From positions 1,408,001-1,472,000 of the forward strand of contig OZ219920.1 of NCBI GenBank assembly GCA_964291415.2: DNA of 64,000 bases, given 5' to 3'. The position numbers and the translations under genes were made by a program. Source of the stretch: Alphaproteobacteria bacterium. GTDB lineage: Bacteria; Pseudomonadota; Alphaproteobacteria; SP197. The notes below the pieces were generated by a model. It was given only the letters and a program-made list of their open reading frames with translations, was not told the origin of the DNA and did not search any database. Numbering within the stretch: the stretch's first letter is position 1; every line of letters begins with the position of its first letter. Shown one piece after another: positions 2,289 to 41,041 of the stretch.

Positions 2289-3899
2289 ATGCCCAGGGCC
2301 ATGATCACCAGCCTTCAGCCCGATGCTGTCGAAGCCGGCGCACGGGTGTTGCGCCAGGGTGGCAACGCGGTCGACGCCGCCCTCGCCTGCGCTTTCGTGC
2401 AGACCGTGGTCGATCCGATGATGTGCGGAATCGCCGGGTTCGGGGCGATGCAGGTGTACATGCCCGGACGCGGTATCCATGAGATCATCGACTTTCACGG
2501 CCGGGTTCCGGCCGCCGCAACCCCGGACATGTGGCAGGACCGCATCCTGGGCGAGACCGAGGATGGCTTCGGTTTCGTCCTCAAAGACGCCGTCAACGAT
2601 CTCGGCTACCAGGCGATCACGACCCCCGGCACCTGCCGAGCCTTCGCCGAGGCGAACCACCGCTACGGCACGCTGGCGTGGGACGAACTGATCGAGCCCG
2701 CCATCGCCTATGCCCGGGGAGGCTTCGTCGTGCGGCCGGGCGTCCATGGCTACTGGGCCGCTCCGGACCACCCCGGGCGCACGAGCGTGCGCGAGCGCCT
2801 CGCGTTTTCGCCCGAGGGCCGCGCCATCTATTTCCGGGCCGACGGCGAACTCCACGGCATCGGCGCCACGATCCGCAACCCCGGAATGGCCTTTTCCCTG
2901 GAGCAGATTGCACGGCACGGCCCTGAGGAGTTCTACGAAGGCGAGATCGCCGCCCGGATCGATGCCGACATGAAGGCCCATGGCGGCCTGCTCTCGGCCC
3001 GCGACCTGCGCGCCTATGCCACCGACACCAATCGCCCGCTGTGGGGCAACTACCGCGGACACCGCCTGGCGACGAACCGCCCGCCGGGCGGCGGCGTCAT
3101 GCTCGTCGAAATGCTCAACATCCTCGAGAACTTCGACCTCGTCGCCATGGGCCACAACTCGCCCACCTACATCCGCACTGTTGCCGAAGCGATGAAAATC
3201 GCCACCGCAGACAAGGACAATCATGTCGGGGACCCACGCTTCACGGAGGTGCCTCTCGAACGGCTGACCGACAAGGCGTATGCCAGGGACCATTCGAGGG
3301 CCATCGAGGCCGGCGAGAAGGCACACGTCGAGAGGATGCCTCTCGCCGAGGCCAGCGGTACGACCCACCTTGTGACGGTCGACCGCGAAGGCAACATCGT
3401 CACCATGACGCACACGCTGGGAATGATGTCGGGTGTCATCACCGAGGGACTGGGCTTCATGTACAATGGTGCGATGGCGGTCTTTGATCCGCGCCCGGGC
3501 CGTACGGGCTCGATCGCGCCGGGCAAGGCCCGCTTCTCATCGCTGTGTCCCACCATCGTGTTCGACGGCAACCGCCCCGTCCTGGCGCTGGGCGCCCCGG
3601 GAGGCACCCAGATCGCCATGGGCGTGCTGCAGGTCATTCTCAACGTCATCGAGTTCGGCATGAGCCCGCAGGAGGCCATCCTGGCGCCCCGTTTCTCGGC
3701 CACCAGCGACACCATCACCGTGACGGCGCGCATACCGCGCTACCTTTGCAAAGACCTCGAGGCAGAGGGCTACCGCGTCGAGCGCAGCCCTTTCAGCTAC
3801 GATATCGCCTCGGTCCATGCCATCGGCTTCGACTCCGAAGGTCATCCTTCAGGAGGAGCCGACATTCCCTACGGCGACGGCATGGCGCTGGCCGTCTGA
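2289..3899 (+). CDS. ggt: Gamma-glutamyltransferase family protein
   Basis: GGNAVDAA, nucleophile segment TTHLVTVDREGN, GAPGG. ATG at 2289 follows GAGGGGAG. Confidence 0.9.
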   Translation: MPRAMITSLQPDAVEAGARVLRQGGNAVDAALACAFVQTVVDPMMCGIAGFGAMQVYMPGRGIHEIIDFHGRVPAAATPDMWQDRILGETEDGFGFVLKDAVNDLGYQAITTPGTCRAFAEANHRYGTLAWDELIEPAIAYARGGFVVRPGVHGYWAAPDHPGRTSVRERLAFSPEGRAIYFRADGELHGIGATIRNPGMAFSLEQIARHGPEEFYEGEIAARIDADMKAHGGLLSARDLRAYATDTNRPLWGNYRGHRLATNRPPGGGVMLVEMLNILENFDLVAMGHNSPTYIRTVAEAMKIATADKDNHVGDPRFTEVPLERLTDKAYARDHSRAIEAGEKAHVERMPLAEASGTTHLVTVDREGNIVTMTHTLGMMSGVITEGLGFMYNGAMAVFDPRPGRTGSIAPGKARFSSLCPTIVFDGNRPVLALGAPGGTQIAMGVLQVILNVIEFGMSPQEAILAPRFSATSDTITVTARIPRYLCKDLEAEGYRVERSPFSYDIASVHAIGFDSEGHPSGGADIPYGDGMALAV

Positions 3900-26117: not shown

Positions 26118-26346
26118 TCATCCCGAACATCGCTTTCATTGTCCGGGATCCGGAAAGCCGTGGTCACGGCATTGCCCTGCTCCGATGATTCGACGTGACC
26201 GGCCCCCGGCGTATCAATCACGTCACCAAGTGTTTTCCTCCAGAACAACTGCAAGAACCGCGAACGCGGGGCAGATCACCCGTCGCCATGGAAGCAGGAC
26301 TATCCCGGGTATGTTGGCATGCCCCGACAACGGCGTTTCAGGAATC

Positions 26347-27105
26347 TCATGCGGTCTCGCCGCCGTCGATCGCGACGATCGAACCGGTCGCAAAGGTCGC
26401 GGCATCGCTGGCGAGGAACAGCACCGGTCCCGCAAGCTCGTCAGTCCTGGCAATGCGCCGTTGCGCACAATCCCTGGCAATGACCTTGTAGCCGTCCTCG
26501 ACATTACCGGCGATGCGCACGGCAAGGTTCTGCAGCATGTCGGTATCGACCCCTCCGGGGCAGACTGCGTTCACCCGGACATCCGGGGCAAGTTCCTTCG
26601 CCAGGCACTTCGTCATGTTGATGACACCGGCCTTCGAGGGGCCGTAGGCAGTGCTTCGCACGACGCCCGTCATGCCGTTGACCGATGCGATGTTGACAAT
26701 GTTGCCTTTGGTGGGGCGCAGGTGCGGAACCGCTGCCTGGATGGTGAAGAACGTGCCCTTGAGGTTGGTGTCGATGATGCGGTCCCACAGCTCTTCCGTG
26801 AAATCGTCGATCGCCGCGCCGCCGCCCCTCCCGGCGTTGTTGACGAGCACGTCGAGGCCACCGAGTCCTTCGACGGCGGCCTCCACGACAGTCCTGCAAC
26901 CCTCTACGGTGGCCACGGATCCCGGCGCGCCGACAACTCGGTCTCCGGAATCGAGTTCGCTGACGGCATCACTGGTGGTGCCCTCGGAACTGCCGTTGAG
27001 TGCCACCCGGGCGCCCGCCTCGACGAAGGCCTCGACGATGGCGCGGCCTATTCCCCTGGTCCCGCCGGTGACGAGCACCCGCCTGCCTTCATGATCGATC
27101 TTCAT
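26347..27105 (-). CDS. SDR family oxidoreductase
   Basis: TGGTRGIG, NNAG, YGPSK, IDGG. Confidence 0.92.
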   Translation of the reverse strand: MKIDHEGRRVLVTGGTRGIGRAIVEAFVEAGARVALNGSSEGTTSDAVSELDSGDRVVGAPGSVATVEGCRTVVEAAVEGLGGLDVLVNNAGRGGGAAIDDFTEELWDRIIDTNLKGTFFTIQAAVPHLRPTKGNIVNIASVNGMTGVVRSTAYGPSKAGVINMTKCLAKELAPDVRVNAVCPGGVDTDMLQNLAVRIAGNVEDGYKVIARDCAQRRIARTDELAGPVLFLASDAATFATGSIVAIDGGETA

Positions 27106-27184
27106 GGTCCTGATCCTCTTCCGTCACACGTACTCTATTGCGCCCTGCAACCGGAACAACCGCTCGTTCACGGCGAGGGCCCGG

Positions 27185-30100
27185 TCAGGCTTCCCCCAGG
27201 GACATGAGCGTGGCGTTGCCCCCGCCGGCAGTGGTGTTGATCGACACGACCCGCTCGGTTGCGAACCGGTGAAGATAGCGGGGCCCGCCGGCCTTGGGAC
27301 CGGTGCCCGAAAGACCCTCGCCGCCAAAGGGCTGGCTTCCCACCACGGCGCCGATCATGTTGCGATTCACATAGATGTTGCCGACGGGCATGCGCCTCGA
27401 AATCCACTGCGCGCGCGAATCGATGCGGGTGTGAATGCCGAGAGTCAGACCGAAACCAGTGGCAACGATGGCGTCGAGCACCTCATGGAGCCTGTCCCCG
27501 GCAAAGCGCACCACATGGATGACCGGACCGAACACTTCGTGCTCGAGGACGCCAATGTCAGGAATCTCCACAAGGGCCGGGGCCAGGAACGTGCCGTGAC
27601 GTGCGAGGTCCGGATCAAGGGGCGAGCGGAAGAGAATCCGGCCGGCGGGTTCAATGCCGGCAAGATGGGACTCGAGCCCTGCAAGCGCCTCATGGTCGAT
27701 CACGGGACCGACGTCGGTGTCGATGAGAGCGGGATCGCCGACCTTCAGTTCCGCCATGGCGCCCGACAGCATCGTGATCACCCGATCGGCAATGTCTTCC
27801 TGCAGACAGAGCACGCGCAGGGCCGAACAGCGCTGGCCGGCACTGGTGATGCCCGAGCGAATGACATCGAGGGTCACCTGTTCGGGCAGCGCCGTCGAAT
27901 CGACGATCATGGCATTCTGTCCGCCGGTCTCGGCAATCAGCGGCACGATGGCGCCGCTCCGTCCGGCAAGGGACAGGTTGATGCGCCGGGCGGTTGCGGT
28001 CGACCCGGTGAAGGCAACGCCGTCGACGCGGGGGTCACGGACCAGGGCGGCCCCGGTGGCGCCGTCACCGGGAAGCAACGACAGTACGTCTTCGGGGATA
28101 CCGGCTGCACGAAACAGGCTGACGGCGTGGGATGCCATGAGAGGCGTCTGTTCCGCCGGCTTGGCGATCACCGCGTTGCCGGCGGCAAGGGCCGCCGCCA
28201 CCTGACCACAGAAGATGGCGAGCGGAAAGTTCCAGGGAGAGATGCAGACAAAGACGCCGCGTCCGTGAAGGCTGATGCGATTGGATTCTCCGGTGGGTCC
28301 CGGAAGTTCGCTGTCGTCAGCGAACTCCGTGCGGGCGCGAACGGCGTAGTACCTGAGGAAATCGACCGCTTCCCTCACCTCCGCCAGTGCATCGCCGATC
28401 GTCTTTCCGCCCTCCAGAACGGCCGTCGCCATCAGCCGGGCACAGTCCCGTTCGAGGAGGTCGGCCGTCATCTCGAGACACGAGGCACGGCTGTCGGCGG
28501 GCGTGACGCTCCAGTCCCAGGCTGCGCCGCGGGCGGCAGAGAGTGCCGAATTGAGATCGCTTTCAGTGGCTTCCCTGATGGTGCCGACAATCCGGCGCCT
28601 GTCTGCCGGACTGGTGATCGTGCGCTCCGTGCCGCTGCACGGCCTGTCGACCGCCCAAGGCGCGTTGCCAGCCGCCCGGTTCATGTCACGGGCGAGCCGG
28701 TGAAGAACCGCCACCCTGGTGAGATCGAGCCCCCTCGCGTTCCTCCTCTCCCCGCCATAGAGGCGCGGCGGTCGCGGGATCGCCGGGTGCACCACCGTAT
28801 CGGACTGGCGCAACACCGTCGCCGGGTCCTTCACCAGTTCCTCGATGGGCAGACTGTCATCGACGATGCGGTTCACAAACGAGGTGTTGGCGCCGTTCTC
28901 AAGCAGCCGGCGGACAAGATAGGGCAGGAGATCGTCGTGACTGCCTACGGGCGAGTAGATTCGGCAGGCCACACCATCCCCCTTGGAGCCGACGAGGGGC
29001 TGGTAGACTGCCTGGCCCATGCCGTGAAGGCGCTGAAACTCGATGTCGCGCCGCCCCTCGGCCAGAACGAGAATGGTGGCGATGGTCTGGGCGTTGTGCG
29101 TGGCGAATTGCGGGAAGAAGAGATCCGGCCGGGCCAGCAGTTTCCTGGCGCAGGCGATGTAGGAAAGGTCCGTCGACGCCTTGCGCGTGAAGACGGGAAA
29201 GCTCTCGAGACCGAGTTCCTGGGCCCGCTTGATCTCGCTGTCCCAGTAGGCCCCCTTGACCAGGCGCACGGGAATCCTGCGGGAGGTGCCGGCGGCGAGC
29301 CAGGCCAGCCAGTCGATCACCGCCATGGCCCGTTTCTGGTAGGCCTGCACCGCCAGACCCAGACCGTCCCAGCCGTTGAGGGCCCGGGAAGCCACCGCCA
29401 GGACATCCAGCGAGAGCTCGAGTCGGTCGGCTTCCTCGGCATCAACCGTGAGGGCTATGCCGCGATCACAGGCGAGATGGCCCAGTTCGATCAGGCGTGG
29501 GGCAAGCTCACTCAGCACACGGGACCGCTGGGCCATCTCGTAGCGGGGATGGAGCGCCGACAGCTTGACCGAGACGCTGGCACGGCGGGTCTGGTCCTGA
29601 CTCCCTTCGGCTTCCCCGACCCGTTCGATGGCATGGCGATAGTGCGCCAGGTGGCGATCGGCATCCGCCATCGTGCAGGCCGCCTCGCCCAGCATGTCGA
29701 AGGAATGCGTGTAGCCGTGCGCCACGTCGTCTCTCGCGTTGACCAGGGCCTCATCGATGTCGCGCCCCATGACGAACTGCCGGCCGACGATGCGCATGGC
29801 GTGCAGAAAGGCCTCCCGGATGACGGGTTCGCCAAGGCGACTGACAACACGCGACACCACGCCTCGCGCGTTCCCCGTCCACTCGGGATCCAGGCTGACG
29901 AGGCGTCCGGTGAGCATCAGCCCCCACGTCGAGGCGTTGACGAACAGCGACTCGCTGTCGCCCAGGTGCCGCTGCCAGTCGGCATCGCCGATCTTGTCCT
30001 GGATGAGCATCAGCGCCGTGGAGGCGTCGGGAATCCGCAACAGGGCCTCGGCGAGGCACATGATGGCGACGCCCTCGTGACTGGAAAGATCGTACTCGTG

Positions 30101-30352
30101 CATGAAGGCGTCGATGCCGCCGGCATGGCGCCTGTTGGCCCGCACGTGCGTCACGAGATCGATGGCGCGTTTCCTGACAGCGCGTCGGTCGTCAGCCTCG
30201 AGACGGGCCTCGGCCATGAGCTCTGCGACCCGCCGGGTCTCGTCCGACGTGGCGTCGAGGCGGACGGGAGCGGTCTCCGTCTCCTCCTCATCGAACACGA
30301 ATGTGATCGCCGCTTTCCCGTCAGACAATCGTCCCGGAGCGGCGGCGCTCAC
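27185..30352 (-). CDS. putA: Bifunctional proline dehydrogenase / L-glutamate gamma-semialdehyde dehydrogenase
   Basis: SFDMLGE, SVKLSALHPRYE, RLVKGAYWDSEIK, FATHNA, RRLLENGAN, ISPWNFP, ETGG, GQRCSA. Confidence 0.97.
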   Translation of the reverse strand: MSAAAPGRLSDGKAAITFVFDEEETETAPVRLDATSDETRRVAELMAEARLEADDRRAVRKRAIDLVTHVRANRRHAGGIDAFMHEYDLSSHEGVAIMCLAEALLRIPDASTALMLIQDKIGDADWQRHLGDSESLFVNASTWGLMLTGRLVSLDPEWTGNARGVVSRVVSRLGEPVIREAFLHAMRIVGRQFVMGRDIDEALVNARDDVAHGYTHSFDMLGEAACTMADADRHLAHYRHAIERVGEAEGSQDQTRRASVSVKLSALHPRYEMAQRSRVLSELAPRLIELGHLACDRGIALTVDAEEADRLELSLDVLAVASRALNGWDGLGLAVQAYQKRAMAVIDWLAWLAAGTSRRIPVRLVKGAYWDSEIKRAQELGLESFPVFTRKASTDLSYIACARKLLARPDLFFPQFATHNAQTIATILVLAEGRRDIEFQRLHGMGQAVYQPLVGSKGDGVACRIYSPVGSHDDLLPYLVRRLLENGANTSFVNRIVDDSLPIEELVKDPATVLRQSDTVVHPAIPRPPRLYGGERRNARGLDLTRVAVLHRLARDMNRAAGNAPWAVDRPCSGTERTITSPADRRRIVGTIREATESDLNSALSAARGAAWDWSVTPADSRASCLEMTADLLERDCARLMATAVLEGGKTIGDALAEVREAVDFLRYYAVRARTEFADDSELPGPTGESNRISLHGRGVFVCISPWNFPLAIFCGQVAAALAAGNAVIAKPAEQTPLMASHAVSLFRAAGIPEDVLSLLPGDGATGAALVRDPRVDGVAFTGSTATARRINLSLAGRSGAIVPLIAETGGQNAMIVDSTALPEQVTLDVIRSGITSAGQRCSALRVLCLQEDIADRVITMLSGAMAELKVGDPALIDTDVGPVIDHEALAGLESHLAGIEPAGRILFRSPLDPDLARHGTFLAPALVEIPDIGVLEHEVFGPVIHVVRFAGDRLHEVLDAIVATGFGLTLGIHTRIDSRAQWISRRMPVGNIYVNRNMIGAVVGSQPFGGEGLSGTGPKAGGPRYLHRFATERVVSINTTAGGGNATLMSLGEA

Positions 30353-31566
30353 GGTTCCCCGCCAGCCACGACAAGGTCGGGCAGATCACCCCGCGCCATT
30401 CGCTCCGTGAGCTTTGCGGTGTGCCAGCGAACGATGGCATCGTCGCCGTCGAGAGCGACGATCTCGCCGGAATCGCAGGCCCGGCTGCCATTCTCCTTCT
30501 CGACCCGGGTGCCAACGGCGATATCCGGAAAGGCCGTTCCCATGGCCTCGGAGACCCGCAGGCTCATGGGCCGGAAGTCCTGGTCCCGGCCGTTCTCCGA
30601 AATGCCGCGGAACAGACTGCCCTGGACCCAGGTGGAAACGGGCGGTTCGTCCTTGCGGGGCAGGCACTGTGACGCTTCGGCCGCCTGCCGTCCGGCCTGA
30701 TTGAGCAACCAGTTGACCGCTTTCGACGCATGACTGGCCGCCCGGAAGATCGCCTTGTTGTCGTCTTCTAGAATCCTCAGCCAGGCGCCGATGTAATCGG
30801 CGTGGTCTTCCCTGATGGCGGGGGCGATGCCGAGCTCTGCCGAGAGGAAGGCAGAGCCGATTTCCGCGACCAGTTCCTCCTTCGCATAGGGCACCTGGTA
30901 GCTGCCCCTGAACGTGCGGTTGAGACGGCTCGCATGGCGCGTCCAGTGGACCGATTCGTGGGCCAGCGTCGTGTAGTAGGCTTCACCGTCGTGGAAGAGT
31001 TCGAAAGCCGGCATCTGGATGTAGTCGTCGCTGAGGACATAGTAGGCCTCGTCCCCGCCGTGGCGGACATCGATGCCGAGATCATGGAAAAAGCCATCGA
31101 GATCCGCGGACCGCCGGTCGCGGTTGACCGGGTGGAACTCGGCGTAGGTACGGTGCCAGCGCTGATCGAGCCCATCGACCTGCTCGACATTGAACACCGT
31201 GAAGGTCTTGTGGAAACCCTGACGACGCACGTTTTCCTCGCCGGTTTCGGGATCGCGCGTCTTCCTGGTGTACTGGTCCGCATAGACGACCGACTGGCCC
31301 TTCTCGCCCTTCCTCACGCGGCCGCCGTGGCGTTTCGCCTGGTTGAAGGTCATCCAGGTCGGTTTCATGTAGCCGGCCGCTGCCGCCGCTGCCCACAGGA
31401 CAATGACGTTGATGCCGCTGTAGGGCTGTCCGGTATCGCGCAGGGGCAGGCCCGCACCCGCGAAAGCGCCGTCAACCCCCGATTCCCAGGGCCGCATCCA
31501 CGGACGGATGCCGTCACGCAACTGGGCCATGATGGACTGGGTAATCCTTGAATGAATGTCTGCCAG
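30349..31566 (-). CDS. ardC: ArdC family ssDNA-binding/antirestriction protein (DUF1738 plus zincin-like domain) with C-terminal extension
   Basis: RPWMRPW, YSGIN..LW, WMTFNQA, VRKGEKG, VFNVEQ, AHESVHWT (HExxH), YAKEELVAE, HADYIGAWL. Probable CTG start after GGGGAGAGGA. Confidence 0.88.
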   Translation of the reverse strand: MADIHSRITQSIMAQLRDGIRPWMRPWESGVDGAFAGAGLPLRDTGQPYSGINVIVLWAAAAAAGYMKPTWMTFNQAKRHGGRVRKGEKGQSVVYADQYTRKTRDPETGEENVRRQGFHKTFTVFNVEQVDGLDQRWHRTYAEFHPVNRDRRSADLDGFFHDLGIDVRHGGDEAYYVLSDDYIQMPAFELFHDGEAYYTTLAHESVHWTRHASRLNRTFRGSYQVPYAKEELVAEIGSAFLSAELGIAPAIREDHADYIGAWLRILEDDNKAIFRAASHASKAVNWLLNQAGRQAAEASQCLPRKDEPPVSTWVQGSLFRGISENGRDQDFRPMSLRVSEAMGTAFPDIAVGTRVEKENGSRACDSGEIVALDGDDAIVRWHTAKLTERMARGDLPDLVVAGGEP

Positions 31567-31582
31567 GAATCCTCTCCCCTGA

Positions 31583-32614
31583 TTACCGGGCCGCGGCGGG
31601 CGCCCCCCGCCCGGCGAACTCGCCTCCTCCCCACAGGGAGACGTGAGGGGGATGCATGACGCTTCCATCGTAGCGGATCGCACCCTCACGGTCGACGTGA
31701 AGCATCAACGGGCCGTCAAGGTCGACGAGGTCGGCATCTTCGGCGACCAGCATCGCCGGCGCCATGGCCAGCGACGTGCTCACCATGCAGCCCACCATGA
31801 CACGAAGCCCACGCTTGCGAGCCGCCCGGCGCAGCGCCAGGGCGCCGGTCAGGCCACCTGCCTTGTCGAGCTTGATGTTCACCATGTCGTAGCGGTCCGC
31901 CAGACGGTCGACATCGTCTGCGGTGTGGCAGGACTCGTCTGCGCACAAAGGAAGCGGACACCTGTAGCCGGCCAGCGCCTCGTCTTTCCCCGCAGGCAGC
32001 GGCTGCTCGATCATCTCGACGCCAAGGCCTGCGAGATCATCCGCGACGTGGATGAGCTGATCCATGGTCCAGGCCTCGTTGGCGTCAATCACCAGACGTG
32101 CACCGGGTGCGCCCTCGCGAACGGCATGCATCCTTTCCATGATGCACTCGCCATCGAGCTTGACCTTGAGCAGCGGGCGCGTCCGGTTGTCGGCCGCGGC
32201 CCTCATCATGGCTTGAGGAGAATCGATGCCAATGGTCCAGGCGGTGATGAGAGAGGAGGGCTCGCTGAGCCCGGCGTGTTGCCAGACCGACTGGCCGGCG
32301 AGTCGCGCCTCGAGGTCCCACAGGGCGCAGTCGACCCCATTGAAGGCCGCCCCCGCCCCGTGCAGATCGTGCCGGCCGGCGCCCCCCTCGACCGCCTCCT
32401 TCAGCCGGGCGATGTCGGCGAGCACCGACTCCATGGTTTCGCCGTAGCGGGCATAGGGAACACATTCGCCCCTGCCCGTCATGCCCTCCTGGGCGATCTC
32501 GACGACGATGACCCGGGCTTCGTTCTTCGCGCCTCGCGCAATCCTGAACGGACGGGCCAGTGGCCAGGTCTCGGGACGTGCGCGGACGGTTCGCCGATGA
32601 CGAGGGCCTGTCAT
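31583..32614 (-). CDS. dgcA: N-acetyl-D-glutamate racemase / L-Ala-D/L-Glu epimerase (enolase superfamily)
   Basis: GRGECVPYARYGE, KVK, DANE, EQP, ADES, NIKLDK, DLDG. Coupled to a dgcN-like gene. Confidence 0.85.
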   Translation of the reverse strand: MTGPRHRRTVRARPETWPLARPFRIARGAKNEARVIVVEIAQEGMTGRGECVPYARYGETMESVLADIARLKEAVEGGAGRHDLHGAGAAFNGVDCALWDLEARLAGQSVWQHAGLSEPSSLITAWTIGIDSPQAMMRAAADNRTRPLLKVKLDGECIMERMHAVREGAPGARLVIDANEAWTMDQLIHVADDLAGLGVEMIEQPLPAGKDEALAGYRCPLPLCADESCHTADDVDRLADRYDMVNIKLDKAGGLTGALALRRAARKRGLRVMVGCMVSTSLAMAPAMLVAEDADLVDLDGPLMLHVDREGAIRYDGSVMHPPHVSLWGGGEFAGRGAPAAAR

Positions 32615-37496: not shown

Positions 37497-38870
37497 TCAG
37501 AGCAGGAGCAGGGACCCAAGGGCGAGGAAGACGAAGAAGCCGACGACATCGGTCACCGTGGTGAGGAAGATGCTCGCGGCAACCGCGGGATCGATGCCGA
37601 ACCTCTCCAGCACCAGGGGCGTGGCGGCGCCGATGAATCCGGCGACAGCAAGGTTGGCCACCATGGCCATGGCGATGACGGCGCCAAGCATGGGACTCTG
37701 GAACCATACCCAGGCGACCAGCCCGGTGATCGCGGCAAAGAGAATCCCGTTGAGGGTGCCGACCAGAATCTCCTTGGCGATCACCCTCATGCCGTTGGCC
37801 CGGGTGAGGTCCCTTGTCGCCAGGGCCCGGACCGCCACCGTCATCGTCTGGGTACCGGCATTGCCCCCCATCGAGGCGACGATGGGCATGAGGACGGCAA
37901 GGGCAACGATCTCCCTGATCGTGCCTTCGAAGATGCCGATGACCATGGACGCCATGACGGCGGTTCCGAGATTGATGAAGAGCCACCAGAAGCGCTTGCG
38001 CGTGGTGTCGATCACCCCCTGATTGAGGTCGGTGGCGGCCACGCCGCCAAGGCGGAGCACGTCCTCTTCCGTTTCCTCGCTCAACACGTCCACCATGTCG
38101 TCGAAGGTGATGGTACCCAGCAACCGGCCGTCGCCGTCGACGACAGCCACCTCGGAGAGCCCGTACTGCTGGAAGAGCCAGGAAACCTCTTCCTGGTCGG
38201 TATCGGCCTTCACGGTCAAGGCTTCGCCCTGGACGAGCGACGTCAGTCGAACGTGGCGGTCACTGCGAATCAGCGCTGCCAGCGCGATGACACCCAGTGG
38301 CCGGTGACCGGGATCGACGACAAAGACGGCATAGAACTCTTCCGGGAGATCGCCTGCGCCTCTCAGGTGGTCGATGGTCTGGCCTACGTTCCAGAATGCC
38401 GGGAGAGCCACGACATCACGGCGCATGAGGCGCCCGGCACTGTCTTCAGGGAAGGTGAGTCCCTGCTCCACCACCTGGCGTTCCGGCGCCGGCACCGCGT
38501 CCAGCACTTCCCGGCGGACCGGGTCATCGAGATCGGCAATGACGTCGACGGCATCATCGGAATCGAGCCTGCCCACCAGCCGGGCAAACGTCTCGAGGCC
38601 GAGTTCCTTGCGCAGGTCGTCGAGAACGGCGTCATCGAGATCGGGAAGGATCTCGGCGTCGATGTCCGGACCGAGGGCCTCGATCACCACCCGGCGCTGT
38701 GCGCCGCCCATCTGTTCGAGGAGATCCGCCTTGTCGGCGGCATGCAAAGGCACCACGAGCGCCTCGAGACGCACCAGGTCCTCCGCATCGACAGCATCGA
38801 TGATTGCCCGAAGAAGATCGGGGCTGAGCCCGTAGAGATCGTGAACTGACTGCAGCGATGTGTCTGTCAT
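37497..38870 (-). CDS. mgtE: Magnesium transporter MgtE
   Basis: EDSAGRLM, CBS pair, LMPIVASMGGNAGTQ, DPAVA, TTVTDVVGF. Confidence 0.96.
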   Translation of the reverse strand: MTDTSLQSVHDLYGLSPDLLRAIIDAVDAEDLVRLEALVVPLHAADKADLLEQMGGAQRRVVIEALGPDIDAEILPDLDDAVLDDLRKELGLETFARLVGRLDSDDAVDVIADLDDPVRREVLDAVPAPERQVVEQGLTFPEDSAGRLMRRDVVALPAFWNVGQTIDHLRGAGDLPEEFYAVFVVDPGHRPLGVIALAALIRSDRHVRLTSLVQGEALTVKADTDQEEVSWLFQQYGLSEVAVVDGDGRLLGTITFDDMVDVLSEETEEDVLRLGGVAATDLNQGVIDTTRKRFWWLFINLGTAVMASMVIGIFEGTIREIVALAVLMPIVASMGGNAGTQTMTVAVRALATRDLTRANGMRVIAKEILVGTLNGILFAAITGLVAWVWFQSPMLGAVIAMAMVANLAVAGFIGAATPLVLERFGIDPAVAASIFLTTVTDVVGFFVFLALGSLLLL

Positions 38871-38909
38871 GGCACACGTCCCCTGTCGTTCCGGGGGCGC
38901 GTGCTGAAA

Positions 38910-38996
38910 TGGTGCGGTCGAGAAGACTCGAACTTCCACGGGCTCTCGCCCACAGCGCCCTCAACGCTGCGCGTCTACCAATTCCGCCACGACCGC
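38910..38996 (-). tRNA. tRNA-Leu (anticodon GAG)
   Basis: GCGGTCG acceptor stem, D-loop GGAATTGGTAGAC, anticodon arm CAGCG-TTGAGGG-CGCTG, long variable arm, GTTCGAGTC, encoded CCA. Confidence 0.97.
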
Positions 38997-39014
38997 ATTG
39001 ACGGGCAGGCCGCA

Positions 39015-39043
39015 CGTATAGCTAATCCTCAAGTACGCCGCAA
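39015..39043 (-). promoter_or_regulatory. Candidate tRNA-Leu promoter
   Basis: TTGCGG-N17-TATACG followed by a GC-rich discriminator, ending 18 bp before the tRNA. Confidence 0.55.
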
Positions 39044-39054
39044 GGCGAGGTATC

Positions 39055-39110
39055 CGTGTCGATGAAATCTCATTCCATCGACACGTGCCACCGTGGCAAG
39101 GGTATGCGCT
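39055..39110. repeat. Direct repeat copy 1 (downstream of fic) containing a 31-bp palindrome
   Basis: 48/56 identical to 40281-40336 by manual alignment. Palindrome cgtgtcgatgaaat-ctc-attccatcgacacg. Confidence 0.9.
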
Positions 39111-39146
39111 GCGGGCGCGGCCATGAGCCATGAGCGCCGGGAATGC

Positions 39147-40232
39147 TCATGCAGCGTCGGCGAGGAGCGCCAGGAGAGGCCGGTTGATGTAGAGGTTTTC
39201 GCGTCCGGCCCTGATTTGCTTGAGTATGCCCTCGGCAGCAAGGGACTTCAGGTAGATGGCGGCTGTCTGGCGTTTAGCGATGTTGGCGGCGACCACGTCA
39301 CTGACTCGGCAGTATGGTTGCTCGAAGACCAGTTCGATCAGTTCGCGAGAATAGATTTTCGGCAGTTCCTGTCGCATTTCAGCGGCCTTCTCGTCGAGAA
39401 GATCCCGAATCGCATTGATTTTTCCCGTCGTCCACTCGGCCGTCGTTCTGACCGCCTCGAGAATGAACAGGATCCAGGTCTCCCAGGCGTGCCGGGTCGT
39501 CACATCGTGCAGATACCGATAGTAGAGCGCCTTGTTCCGGATGATGTGTCGACTGAGGTAGAGCACGGGAATGTCGAGAAGGCCCTTGTCGACAAGATAG
39601 AGCAGGTTCAATACGCGTCCTGTCCGACCGTTGCCATCAACGAACGGATGAATGGCCTCGAACTGATAGTGCATCACTGCAAGCCGGATCAGCGGGTCGA
39701 GTTCCCCGCCTTCGTGGATGTAGCGCTCCCAGTTCGCCAGCTTTCTCCGAAGCAGGTCCTCTCCCTCAGGCGGAGTGTAGATCACGTCACTGGTTGCATC
39801 ATTGATCAACGCGGTCCCGGGCGTATTGCGAACATCGAGATCGACTCCCTTGATCGTCCGACAGACTTCGACCGCCAGGGCGGTCGAAACCGGGCGGCGC
39901 TTCAGCATCTTGAAACCACGGTAGAGGGCGGTGCGATAGCGCAGAGCCTCCCTCGTGGCCGGGTCCGCCTGATCCGCCACGTCGTTGGCATGGCGGAACA
40001 AACGGTCGGTCGTCGTGACGATGTTCTCGATCTCGGAACTCGCCTGCGCTTCGAGCAGAGGAATCGAGTTAATCAACATCGCCTGGTTCGGTATGAGCCT
40101 GCCGGAGATCCGAAGTTCTTCCAGCGCCGTGCGCGCGGCGATGCAGCTGCGAAGGATGGCGCGTGTCTCGGTTTGAAAAACCGGTGGCAGGTCCGGAAGG
40201 TCATTGAAGGGGCGGCCGGGATCGAAGGCCAT
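39147..40232 (-). CDS. Fic family protein adenylyltransferase (SoFic-like, class II) with C-terminal winged-helix-like domain
   Basis: Canonical HPFVDGNGRTGR motif, inhibitory SSEIEN motif, C-terminal KRQTAAIYLKSL..EGIL. ATG follows GGGGAG. Confidence 0.93.
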   Translation of the reverse strand: MAFDPGRPFNDLPDLPPVFQTETRAILRSCIAARTALEELRISGRLIPNQAMLINSIPLLEAQASSEIENIVTTTDRLFRHANDVADQADPATREALRYRTALYRGFKMLKRRPVSTALAVEVCRTIKGVDLDVRNTPGTALINDATSDVIYTPPEGEDLLRRKLANWERYIHEGGELDPLIRLAVMHYQFEAIHPFVDGNGRTGRVLNLLYLVDKGLLDIPVLYLSRHIIRNKALYYRYLHDVTTRHAWETWILFILEAVRTTAEWTTGKINAIRDLLDEKAAEMRQELPKIYSRELIELVFEQPYCRVSDVVAANIAKRQTAAIYLKSLAAEGILKQIRAGRENLYINRPLLALLADAA

Positions 40233-40280
40233 GTCGATGCGCTCCCCGGACATGTCGATACCGTCGACATATGTCCTTAA

Positions 40281-40336
40281 CGTGTCGATGAAATTCAATT
40301 TTATCGACACGTGCGATCGTTGCAAGGGTATGCGCT
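40281..40336. repeat. Direct repeat copy 2 (upstream of fic): candidate promoter plus operator
   Basis: Palindrome cgtgtcgatgaaatt-c-aattttatcgacacg. Minus strand reads TTGCAA-N16-TAAAAT. Confidence 0.9.
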
Positions 40337-40399
40337 ATCGAGCAGACGTGGGAGCGGGCGGGTTCCGGGCAACATTGGTGATCTGCTAGATTTGCTTCC

Positions 40400-41041
40400 A
40401 TGACATCTGTTCGCTGGATGGTGAGCGATCGGCCGGTGGCCTATCCGGATGCGGTGCGGTCCATGGAAGAGACGGTCGCTGGCATTCGCGCCGGCGGGGC
40501 GCCGGAAACGGTGTGGCTGCTCGAACATCCGAGCGTCTTCACTGCGGGAACGAGTGCGCGGGATGACGAACTCATCGATGCCGGAGACATCCCTGTCTAC
40601 CGCACCGGGCGCGGCGGCCGCTACACCTGGCATGGGCCAGGTCAGCAGATTGCCTACGTCATGCTCGACCTCGCCCGCCGGGGACACGATCTGCATGCCT
40701 TTGTCGCTGACCTTGAAACCTGGATCATCCGGACGCTGGCGCGATTCGGAGTTGAGGGTCAATGCCGCCGGGACCGGGTCGGGGTCTGGGTGGTCGACGC
40801 CTGCGGCCGCGAGGACAAGATCGCGGCCATCGGCATACGCGTACGGCGCTGGGTGAGCTTTCATGGCATCAGCATCAACCGCGCCCCGGATCTCGCGCCC
40901 TACACCCGTATCGTGCCGTGCGGCGTCAGGTCTCACGGCGTGACGTCACTGGCTGCGCTCGGCGTCGAGGTCGAAGACGATGCGTTGCGCTCGGCCATGG
41001 AAGAGACGTTCCGGGACGTCTTCTACAACGTTGGTCGTTGA
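40400..41041 (+). CDS. lipB: Lipoyl(octanoyl) transferase
   Basis: WLLEHP.VFTAGTS, RGGRYTWHGPGQ, KIAAIG, HGISIN, IVPCG. Confidence 0.96.
   Translation: MTSVRWMVSDRPVAYPDAVRSMEETVAGIRAGGAPETVWLLEHPSVFTAGTSARDDELIDAGDIPVYRTGRGGRYTWHGPGQQIAYVMLDLARRGHDLHAFVADLETWIIRTLARFGVEGQCRRDRVGVWVVDACGREDKIAAIGIRVRRWVSFHGISINRAPDLAPYTRIVPCGVRSHGVTSLAALGVEVEDDALRSAMEETFRDVFYNVGR

Follow-up and report, generated by a model that had tools for sequence, protein, structure and literature searches.

A conserved putative operator array upstream of SoFic-type fic genes and a truncated second copy of it in an alphaproteobacterial genome

We analyzed a stretch of 64,000 nucleotides from an alphaproteobacterial genome (GCA_964291415.2, contig OZ219920.1, positions 1,408,001 to 1,472,000 of the forward strand; hereafter the window), in which a gene for a Fic-type AMP-transferase is bracketed by two direct repeats of 56 nt, each of them containing a palindrome. 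In our opinion the palindromes probably serve as operators through which a fic gene of the SoFic type represses itself, and the repeat copy downstream of the gene is probably the stump of a second fic unit. The original prediction, made from the sequence alone, had proposed either a minimal gene cassette moved by recombination between palindromic sites or a duplicated promoter-operator kept under selection.

The repeat scan found the two copies at 39055-39110 and 40281-40336, exactly as predicted. They are 48/56 identical (86%) and spaced 1226 nt apart, and five of their eight differences (positions 15, 16, 17, 21 and 22) fall in the palindrome centre, the other three (35, 37 and 41) being located between the palindrome and the -35 element. 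Both palindromes were also found to be near-perfect: the arms in the downstream copy (39055-39068 and 39072-39085) have the predicted 14-3-14 structure and match at 93%, but those in the upstream copy (40280-40295 and 40297-40312, 94%) form a 16-1-16 structure instead of the predicted 15-1-15. The combination GTGTCGAT-N13-ATCGACAC occurs twice in the window versus an expectation of 0.03, and two occurrences were reached in 0/100 shuffles.

On the fic strand, the promoter scan called one site in the upstream copy (TTGCAA-16-TAAAAT at 40325..40298; 0.4 expected), with the -35 element TTGCAA at 40325..40320 and the -10 element TAAAAT at 40303..40298. Both scans, and the presence of the same module before fic in 13 loci of the genus, identify the upstream copy (40281..40336, minus strand) as the predicted fic promoter together with a first operator, O1. 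The O1 site of this copy, TGTCGA-N15-TCGACA (40283..40309), overlaps the -10 element and the likely transcription start. A second site, O2, with the sequence TGTCGA-N5-TCGACA (40253..40269), starts 40 nt past the start of O1 on the fic strand. The third site, O3, is a half-site TCGACA (40232..40237, minus strand), the last A of which doubles as the first base of the fic start codon, the ATG at 40232; it was recognized by comparing the window sequence with the 13 genus loci and with class-level loci.

The downstream copy (39055..39110, minus strand), delimited by the repeat scan, is a truncated second promoter-operator module that consists of a -35-like element and O1 and is devoid of O2, O3 or any fic remnant. 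The second promoter of the original prediction, TTGCCA-N16-TGGAAT, is present in its letters (-35-like TTGCCA at 39099..39094, weak -10 TGGAAT at 39077..39072), but in contrast to the upstream one it was not called by the promoter scan. TGGAAT is without the key A at position 2 of the -10 element, and this copy is a poorer promoter than the upstream one. Both half-sites of its O1 (TGTCGA-N15-TCGACA, 39057..39083) are intact, as seen in motif searches. Between this copy and the stop codon of the gene lies the 3' flank of the fic unit (39111..39146, minus strand), in which approximately 20-30 nt past the stop are common to fic units elsewhere and are followed by the junction with the downstream copy.

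The insert between the two repeats contains fic alone (39147..40232, minus strand; 361 amino acids). Its product has the Pfam domains Fic_N, Fic and SoFic-like_C, the last of which is the SoFic-like C-terminal winged-helix domain PF21248 (E 6.7e-31), and it matches the SoFic structures 9tch/3eqx over residues 7-358 (E 2e-134). The Fic motif HPFVDGNGRTGR, invariant in the alignment of homologues, is intact, and so is the inhibitory helix motif SSEIEN (residues 65-70), which fits the pattern (S/T)xxxE(G/N) as defined in the available part of the report on the Fic protein CccR (PMC9755527). By its motifs, domains and full-length similarity, the window gene encodes a SoFic-type class II Fic protein with a winged helix-turn-helix (wHTH), for which AMPylation is predicted.

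In order to see how far the promoter-operator layout is conserved, fic loci were compared at three levels. The locus comparison covered 40 other genomes, among them 22 congeners, 12 of which have a fic relative, in at least six genomic contexts. Homology between non-syntenic loci begins about 75-175 nt ahead of the ATG and reaches no further than about 25 nt past the stop, and these limits define a fic unit of about 1.25 kb that is made up of the gene and its own promoter; no other gene co-occurs with this unit across the contexts. All 13 of the 13 genus fic loci share the same upstream layout, namely a -35 element, O1 over the -10 element, O2 about 13 nt further on, and O3. The third site is, in several relatives, a full N15 palindrome that encloses the ribosome-binding site, or, as in the window, a lone TCGACA ending on the A of the ATG.

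The class-level sample comprised 300 other genomes, 15 of them with a homologue at E <=1e-40. The wide survey was based on species-representative genomes of Alpha-, Beta- and Gammaproteobacteria, Cyanobacteria, Acidobacteria and other phyla, and contained 80 loci (50-83% identical), 78 of which had enough upstream sequence. The search for motifs at the flanks of SoFic homologues, suggested in the original prediction, was productive: an N15 site with at most one mismatch was found within 200 nt upstream of fic in 47/78 loci, and an N5 site in 42/78, versus 0/78 for each in the coding control. The N5 site is offset from the N15 site by +40/+41 in 32 site pairs and by -30/-31 in 19. The dominant spacings between half-sites are N15 (46 pairs), N45 (35 pairs) and N5 (28 pairs).

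Variants of this layout were also observed. In L078, L086, L089, L092 and L103, fic is preceded by two or three operator modules in tandem, repeated every 70 nt (N5, N15, N5, N15 and so on), and the period of these arrays suggests several dimers bound on one face of the DNA. In two Shewanella loci (L104 and L114) a perfect N5 site at -67 stands beside hybrid TGTCGA-N15-TAAACA sites, and the same combination with a perfect TGTCGA-N5-TCGACA was seen in L117, L121 and L134; the asymmetry of the half-sites in these hybrid operators is unexplained for a homodimer.

More distant homologues (43-45% identical) have the same geometry built from another half-site (TGTTAA-N15-TTAACA), one copy of which falls on the ATG (cATGTTAAA). 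The recognition helix differs between the two classes, reading V(T/S)RQTAAKYLD in the TGTTAA class and A(K/Q/R)RQTA(A/S)xYLK in the TGTCGA class, and a third type combines the helix ITRITATKHLR with palindromes of the TATATA type. The joint change of half-site and recognition helix makes the wHTH of Fic itself the likely binder of these sites.

The wHTH of Fic is likely to be the repressor of its own promoter, as judged from these comparisons. We infer that dimeric Fic would bind O1, O2 and the half-site through its C-terminal winged helix and would thereby shut off its own transcription. Such autorepression would hold a potentially toxic AMP-transferase at a low level, and would also allow the fic unit of about 1.25 kb to function on its own at any landing site.

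Autorepression of Fic-HTH genes is a known type of regulation, and what is added here is a defined operator architecture that is found across phyla. CccR of Yersinia pseudotuberculosis was the only Fic-wHTH protein with mapped operators in the literature searched; according to the available part of the report, it represses its own promoter via the palindrome AGATAATCAT-N26-ATGATAATCT, and the dimer is required (PMC9755527). Both proteins combine a Fic domain with a C-terminal HTH. As in CccR, where the inverted repeat lies near the gene's own -35 and -10 elements (PMC9755527), the window gene has an inverted repeat over its own promoter, and this repeat is conserved together with the gene (13/13 genus loci, 47/78 wide loci). 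However, the CccR operator is described in that part of the report as a single site with 10-bp arms and a 26-bp spacer, whereas the window fic has TGTCGA hexamers in three phased sites, and the geometry of the CccR operator is not matched by SoFic-type loci, in which only 4 pairs have the N26 spacing. The similarity of the window protein to the presumed CccR (7xux-type PDB entries, whose assignment to CccR is a guess) is weak, with E ~1e-5, and, unlike at CccR, no type VI secretion context was seen at the window fic.

The window protein resembles SoFic (Shewanella oneidensis MloA; PDB 3eqx, 9tch) over its full length, in its domains, in its inhibitory and catalytic motifs and in a near-identical recognition helix. 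Shewanella loci related to SoFic differ from the window fic in having the hybrid TGTCGA-N15-TAAACA together with a perfect N5 site. As described in the available text of a preprint, dimeric SoFic binds the 100 bp that precede the start codon of its gene and modifies EF-Tu by AMPylation, a target established there for SoFic only; the main text names no operator sequence and mentions no palindrome, operator or footprint (bioRxiv 10.64898/2026.07.09.737422). We found no description of a TGTCGA operator in the literature searched, which is not proof of its absence.

Fic-wHTH proteins number in the thousands. For the SoFic branch there is now a concrete operator that can be tested, consisting of TGTCGA-N15-TCGACA, TGTCGA-N5-TCGACA 40 nt further on and a site at the start codon, and the autoregulation of SoFic becomes directly testable with it. 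Additionally, a second specificity class (TGTTAA) co-varies with the recognition helix. A self-contained promoter-operator would explain how fic moves as a bare unit of 1.25 kb, and the repeat pair of the window becomes mostly ordinary, its downstream member being a spare, truncated promoter-operator.

The surroundings of the gene help to place this spare copy. The tRNA-Leu/lipB region was taken from 18 congeners, and fic is indeed inserted between these two genes, as had been predicted: in eight congeners the gap is empty, with 60-176 nt from tRNA-Leu to lipB, no O1 site and no match to the 56-mer. The remaining congener gaps hold 0.4-7.5 kb of varied cargo, including a Rieske oxygenase, an Opp-type ATP-binding cassette (ABC) operon, hipBA, an insertion sequence (IS)-like gene, and fic or its remains. 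The fic gene in the gap is intact in G001, G004 and G016, internally deleted in G006 and cut after about 165 codons in G019; G005 and G014 have stumps comprising the promoter plus the first codons, and G012 has a solo module. The varied cargo and the fic remains across the congeners indicate that the gap is a hot spot and that fic has long been present in it and is often in decay there. In G004 (L025, 3074-4649) the gap contains, immediately downstream of fic, genes for a hipA-like kinase and an HTH (hipB-like) protein, a case in which toxin-like genes cluster at the tRNA-Leu/lipB hot spot.

The similarity of the window to the tRNA flank of its relatives ends at 39054/39055, where the downstream 56-mer begins. 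Read on the fic strand, the downstream copy starts 37 nt past the fic stop, approximately where the homology of the unit ends, and it ends 2 nt past the O1 palindrome, abutting the tRNA-Leu promoter. It was found in only one of the 13 genus fic loci, no O1 being present after fic in any of the others. Its identity is 48/56 to its upstream twin, 48/56 to the module of G006 and 47/56 to that of G019, and it retains the TTGCCACGG form found in other species. Being equally far from its twin and from the modules of other species, it is old or imported and not a fresh copy.

We infer that the downstream copy is the 5' stump, i.e. the -35 element and O1 in the first 56 nt, of a second fic unit arranged head to tail with the first. 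Such a unit may have arisen by homologous or slippage recombination between fic units, either as a tandem duplication or through a one-unit circle integrating into the resident module, and everything beyond the edge of the O1 palindrome would then have been deleted; this process would involve no dedicated recombinase acting on the palindromes. As both O1 half-sites of the stump are intact, Fic would probably still bind there, as an auxiliary operator. The frequency of decayed and tandem modules at the tRNA-Leu/lipB locus supports the stump reading (decayed in G005, G012 and G014; two tandem modules each in G001, G004 and G016). In G005 the right half of O1 is joined directly to the ATG, which indicates that the repeated half-sites are deletion points. 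Moreover, in an Alcanivorax locus fic lies between the copies of a 252-nt direct repeat (87% identity) whose end coincides exactly with the right edge of O1, and this locus is an independent instance of the same arrangement.

Several observations weigh against the operator and stump readings. The TGTCGA N15 site is missing from 31/78 loci of the wide survey, some of which have other half-sites while others are unexplained. The stump model requires a deletion with its endpoint precisely at the edge of O1, and an intermediate with two full fic units was found in no relative examined. In addition, the repeat begins on its left (AGCGCAT) some 9 nt within the 5' sequence that the clade's fic units have in common (…gatcgat|agcgca), so that the junction is not a clean joint between two units. 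Finally, none of the 18 positions in the operator arms has changed between the two copies, compared with 8/38 elsewhere in the repeat; the one-sided p of ~0.03, calculated by hand with a partition chosen after the family consensus had been seen, lends weak support to selection maintaining the downstream O1. Of the second proposal in the original prediction, the duplicated promoter-operator is supported, the palindrome being the conserved SoFic-type operator, and its being kept under selection is weakly supported.

If the downstream module is indeed kept by selection, it could be an auxiliary operator or a Fic-controlled element, an explanation that we regard as unlikely. O1-dn might loop with O1-up, 1226 bp away, and so tighten repression or block read-through, or the module might act on the promoter of tRNA-Leu(GAG)/mgtE, the centre of O1-dn being about 62 nt upstream of the tRNA-Leu start as placed by its inferred promoter. 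In the lac (O2, O3) and lambda (OL-OR) systems, looping to a distant second operator inside the gene or past its end can tighten repression, and the window likewise has a second operator far from the promoter; however, looping is hypothetical for Fic-wHTH proteins, and relatives have not conserved the downstream site. Sites past the fic stop exist elsewhere, an N15 or N5 site being present there in 8/75 loci of the wide survey; in L121 and L134 an operator array after fic precedes hsdR (HSDR_N), the fic gene of the Agrobacterium vitis plasmid pAt has a perfect O1 about 25 nt past its stop, facing a convergent gene. In the window's own genome, a solo module on C1 precedes a PhyH gene and has the orientation of that gene. 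For the generic half-site pattern, however, a downstream N15 was counted in 6/97 loci versus 4/97 in a longer coding control. The presence of the module in only one genus locus, its poor -10 element, not called by the scan, and the possession by tRNA-Leu of its own promoter, conserved across genera, also argue against a maintained function.

As RNA, O1-dn would form a 14-bp hairpin that is not followed by a U tract, according to the RNA fold, and no terminator-like site was found by the scan of 38700-40600. We also considered the downstream copy as the promoter of tRNA-Leu and rejected it, a conserved promoter being present between the copy and the tRNA in 17 genomes. Other loci with sites after the gene have peculiarities of their own. 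In L121, L134, L117, L119, L122, L128 and L132, fic has no upstream TGTCGA operator and the array follows directly after fic instead; in L134, and likewise in L121, the start codon of fic overlaps the stop of the preceding gene. The hsdR gene that comes after the array in these two loci is a type I restriction gene, and Fic-wHTH may control its expression there. In the A. vitis locus (L144) the perfect TGTCGA-N15-TCGACA lies at ~3625-3651, past the stop of a plasmid fic that is 73% identical; the convergent gene encodes a GNAT protein, and operator sites are present upstream of this fic too.

The cassette of the original prediction, in which the 1226-bp segment would be excised or integrated as a circle with the repeats as active element ends, through a site-specific recombinase acting in trans at the palindromes or a RecA-dependent crossover between the 56-bp repeats, appears very improbable. 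The insertion of fic between tRNA-Leu and lipB and the minimal unit in many contexts agree with it, and SoFic-like genes were found on 325 plasmid records (218 conjugative) as well as one phage record. Of 99 fic loci, eight (L056, L075, L101, L108, L118, L119, G000 and G180) are flanked by direct repeats of 40 nt or more, that of L118 being a multi-copy element; at 1774 random positions of this genome 25 passed the same score and 7 had repeats of at least 40 nt with at least 85% identity, a control in which one genome and random positions instead of accessory genes make the enrichment a rough one. The flanking repeats at other fic loci are, however, mostly locus-specific ends of neighbouring genes and not palindromes, and no other fic locus of the genus is flanked by the same pair. 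The palindrome itself is accounted for as an operator, the relatives carry the module upstream only, and two repeats of only 56 bp with 86% identity are a poor recombination substrate and point to an old event. The original prediction had asked whether empty loci keep a single 56-mer, and the eight empty congener loci have none, which means that the 56-mer is neither a target duplication nor an att site. The second copy behaves instead as the one-off duplication that the prediction had named as the result speaking against a cassette. No integrase or transposase was found within about 12 kb of fic, in agreement with the original prediction (22 open reading frames at 26-53 kb, five of them without any family match), and no dif-like or attC-like core was seen by eye in the 56-mer. 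Contigs of the sequencing runs X1, X2, X3 and X5 contain no joint that skips the 1226 nt, although contigs cannot reveal rare forms: a joint 38997->40499 in one contig of X1 corresponds to a relative's empty tRNA-lipB locus, one at 39183->40377 in X5 has only 21 nt on one side, and X2 yielded near-identical fic pieces. Least credible of all, with next to no probability, is an assembly artefact or a chance similarity. The genome record lists 8.99% contamination and run X1, which may be the source run of this genome, holds contigs of other organisms; nevertheless, two separate contigs assembled independently from X1 (38982-40047 and 40029-40600) span one copy each and extend into unique flanking sequence, with 0-1 differences, the eight differences between the copies speak against a collapsed or duplicated pile of reads, and the palindrome pair has the chance expectation of 0.03 given above.

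The joint tRNA-to-lipB contig of run X1, which covers the window best of the runs, together with its many diverged fic pieces, indicates more than one related organism in that run, in agreement with the contamination listed for the genome. An integron gene cassette was rejected as well: neither 56-mer contains GTTRRRY, no integrase is present at 26-53 kb, and the insert is a single gene.

A different mode of insertion was recognized at another fic locus. In G180 (L137, G180:C46) fic is flanked by a 385-nt duplication, 99.5% identical, whereas the congener G324 (L143, G324:C123) has a single copy and no fic. The fic unit of G180, 1.3 kb with its operators, lies beside an unannotated gene of 378 amino acids, and the duplication is the 3' end of that gene. 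This pair of loci fully fits an insertion with long target duplication, which has been described for restriction-modification gene units with direct repeats of tens to hundreds of bp; in the available part of that report, the repeated sequence occurs once at the corresponding empty site of a relative and the units are without mobility genes (Furuta et al. 2010, PMC2853133). The G180 case extends this mode of insertion from restriction-modification genes to a Fic gene. The window is similar in that its flanking repeat exceeds 30 bp and its insert is free of mobility genes, but it differs in that its repeat is the unit's own promoter-operator and is not found in the empty sites. The minimal movable unit of the original prediction is therefore upheld as the unit of about 1.25 kb seen in many contexts, but the repeats that flank it elsewhere are mostly locus-specific target duplications.

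A more speculative proposal, to which we give little credence, is that the SoFic-type fic is a selfish, self-silencing single-gene mobile unit in which a tightly bound O1, at the 5' edge, is a hot spot for breakage, head-to-tail duplication and circle formation. If so, the operator array would silence a toxin-like enzyme on arrival, and the O1-fic-O1 arrangement (the window, Alcanivorax and the Agrobacterium plasmid) would be an amplifiable and excisable form, in parallel to the life cycle proposed for restriction-modification genes with long target duplications. Leftover operators would then be new Fic-controlled sites, by tRNA-Leu/mgtE and the PhyH gene in this genome and by hsdR elsewhere.

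Three TGTCGA-N15-TCGACA promoter-operator modules are present in the 4.44-Mb genome, all of them linked to fic, and two of these are the window pair. The third (343012-343068 of C1; G000:C1:343012, G000 being this genome) has the same -35 element, O1 and TGTCGA-N5-TCGACA, followed by ATGACC… and an apparent decayed or deleted 5' end of fic. It lies between an amidohydrolase gene and a gene for a PhyH-family dioxygenase, about 110 nt upstream of the latter and in the same orientation, and could be a decayed fic unit that now stands in front of another gene. A dispersed repeat of the repetitive extragenic palindromic (REP) or miniature inverted-repeat transposable element (MITE) kind, which the original prediction had named as a result that would overturn it, was rejected, there being only these three fic-linked copies. 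Exact hexamer pairs number 11 with the N5 and 4 with the N15 spacing in the whole genome, where about 2.3 are expected per spacing. A wider Fic regulon was also considered and dismissed; the two most operator-like extra sites (C1:421455 and C4:1553996) fall inside coding sequence, in frames whose translations read as malic-enzyme-like and arginase-family-like, and were attributed to chance.

The remaining features of the neighbourhood were annotated as follows. The tRNA-Leu(GAG) gene (38910..38996, minus strand) was found by ARAGORN, and its promoter region (38997..39054, minus strand) is conserved across genera in the aligned upstream sequences of 17 genomes. The pattern CTTGCG…N17…TATA lies within 50 nt upstream of the tRNA in these genera, and the predicted promoter in the window has a -35 element TTGCGG at 39043..39038 and a -10 element TATACG at 39020..39015. 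Downstream of tRNA-Leu lies mgtE (37497..38873, minus strand), which encodes a magnesium transporter (Pfam MgtE_N, CBS and MgtE). On the other side, lipB (40400..41041, plus strand), divergent from fic, encodes an octanoyltransferase, as identified by Pfam LplA-B_cat and synteny. About 7.5 kb from fic there is a gene for an ArdC-like anti-restriction protein or zincin (30349-31689, minus strand), adjoined by two long open reading frames without a Pfam family (region 26185-30700, plus strand), and these may be what is left of a conjugative element. Within mgtE, in its 5' part, there is a direct repeat of 50 nt (38518-38567 and 38626-38675, 70% identical), which is probably a repeat internal to the coding sequence.

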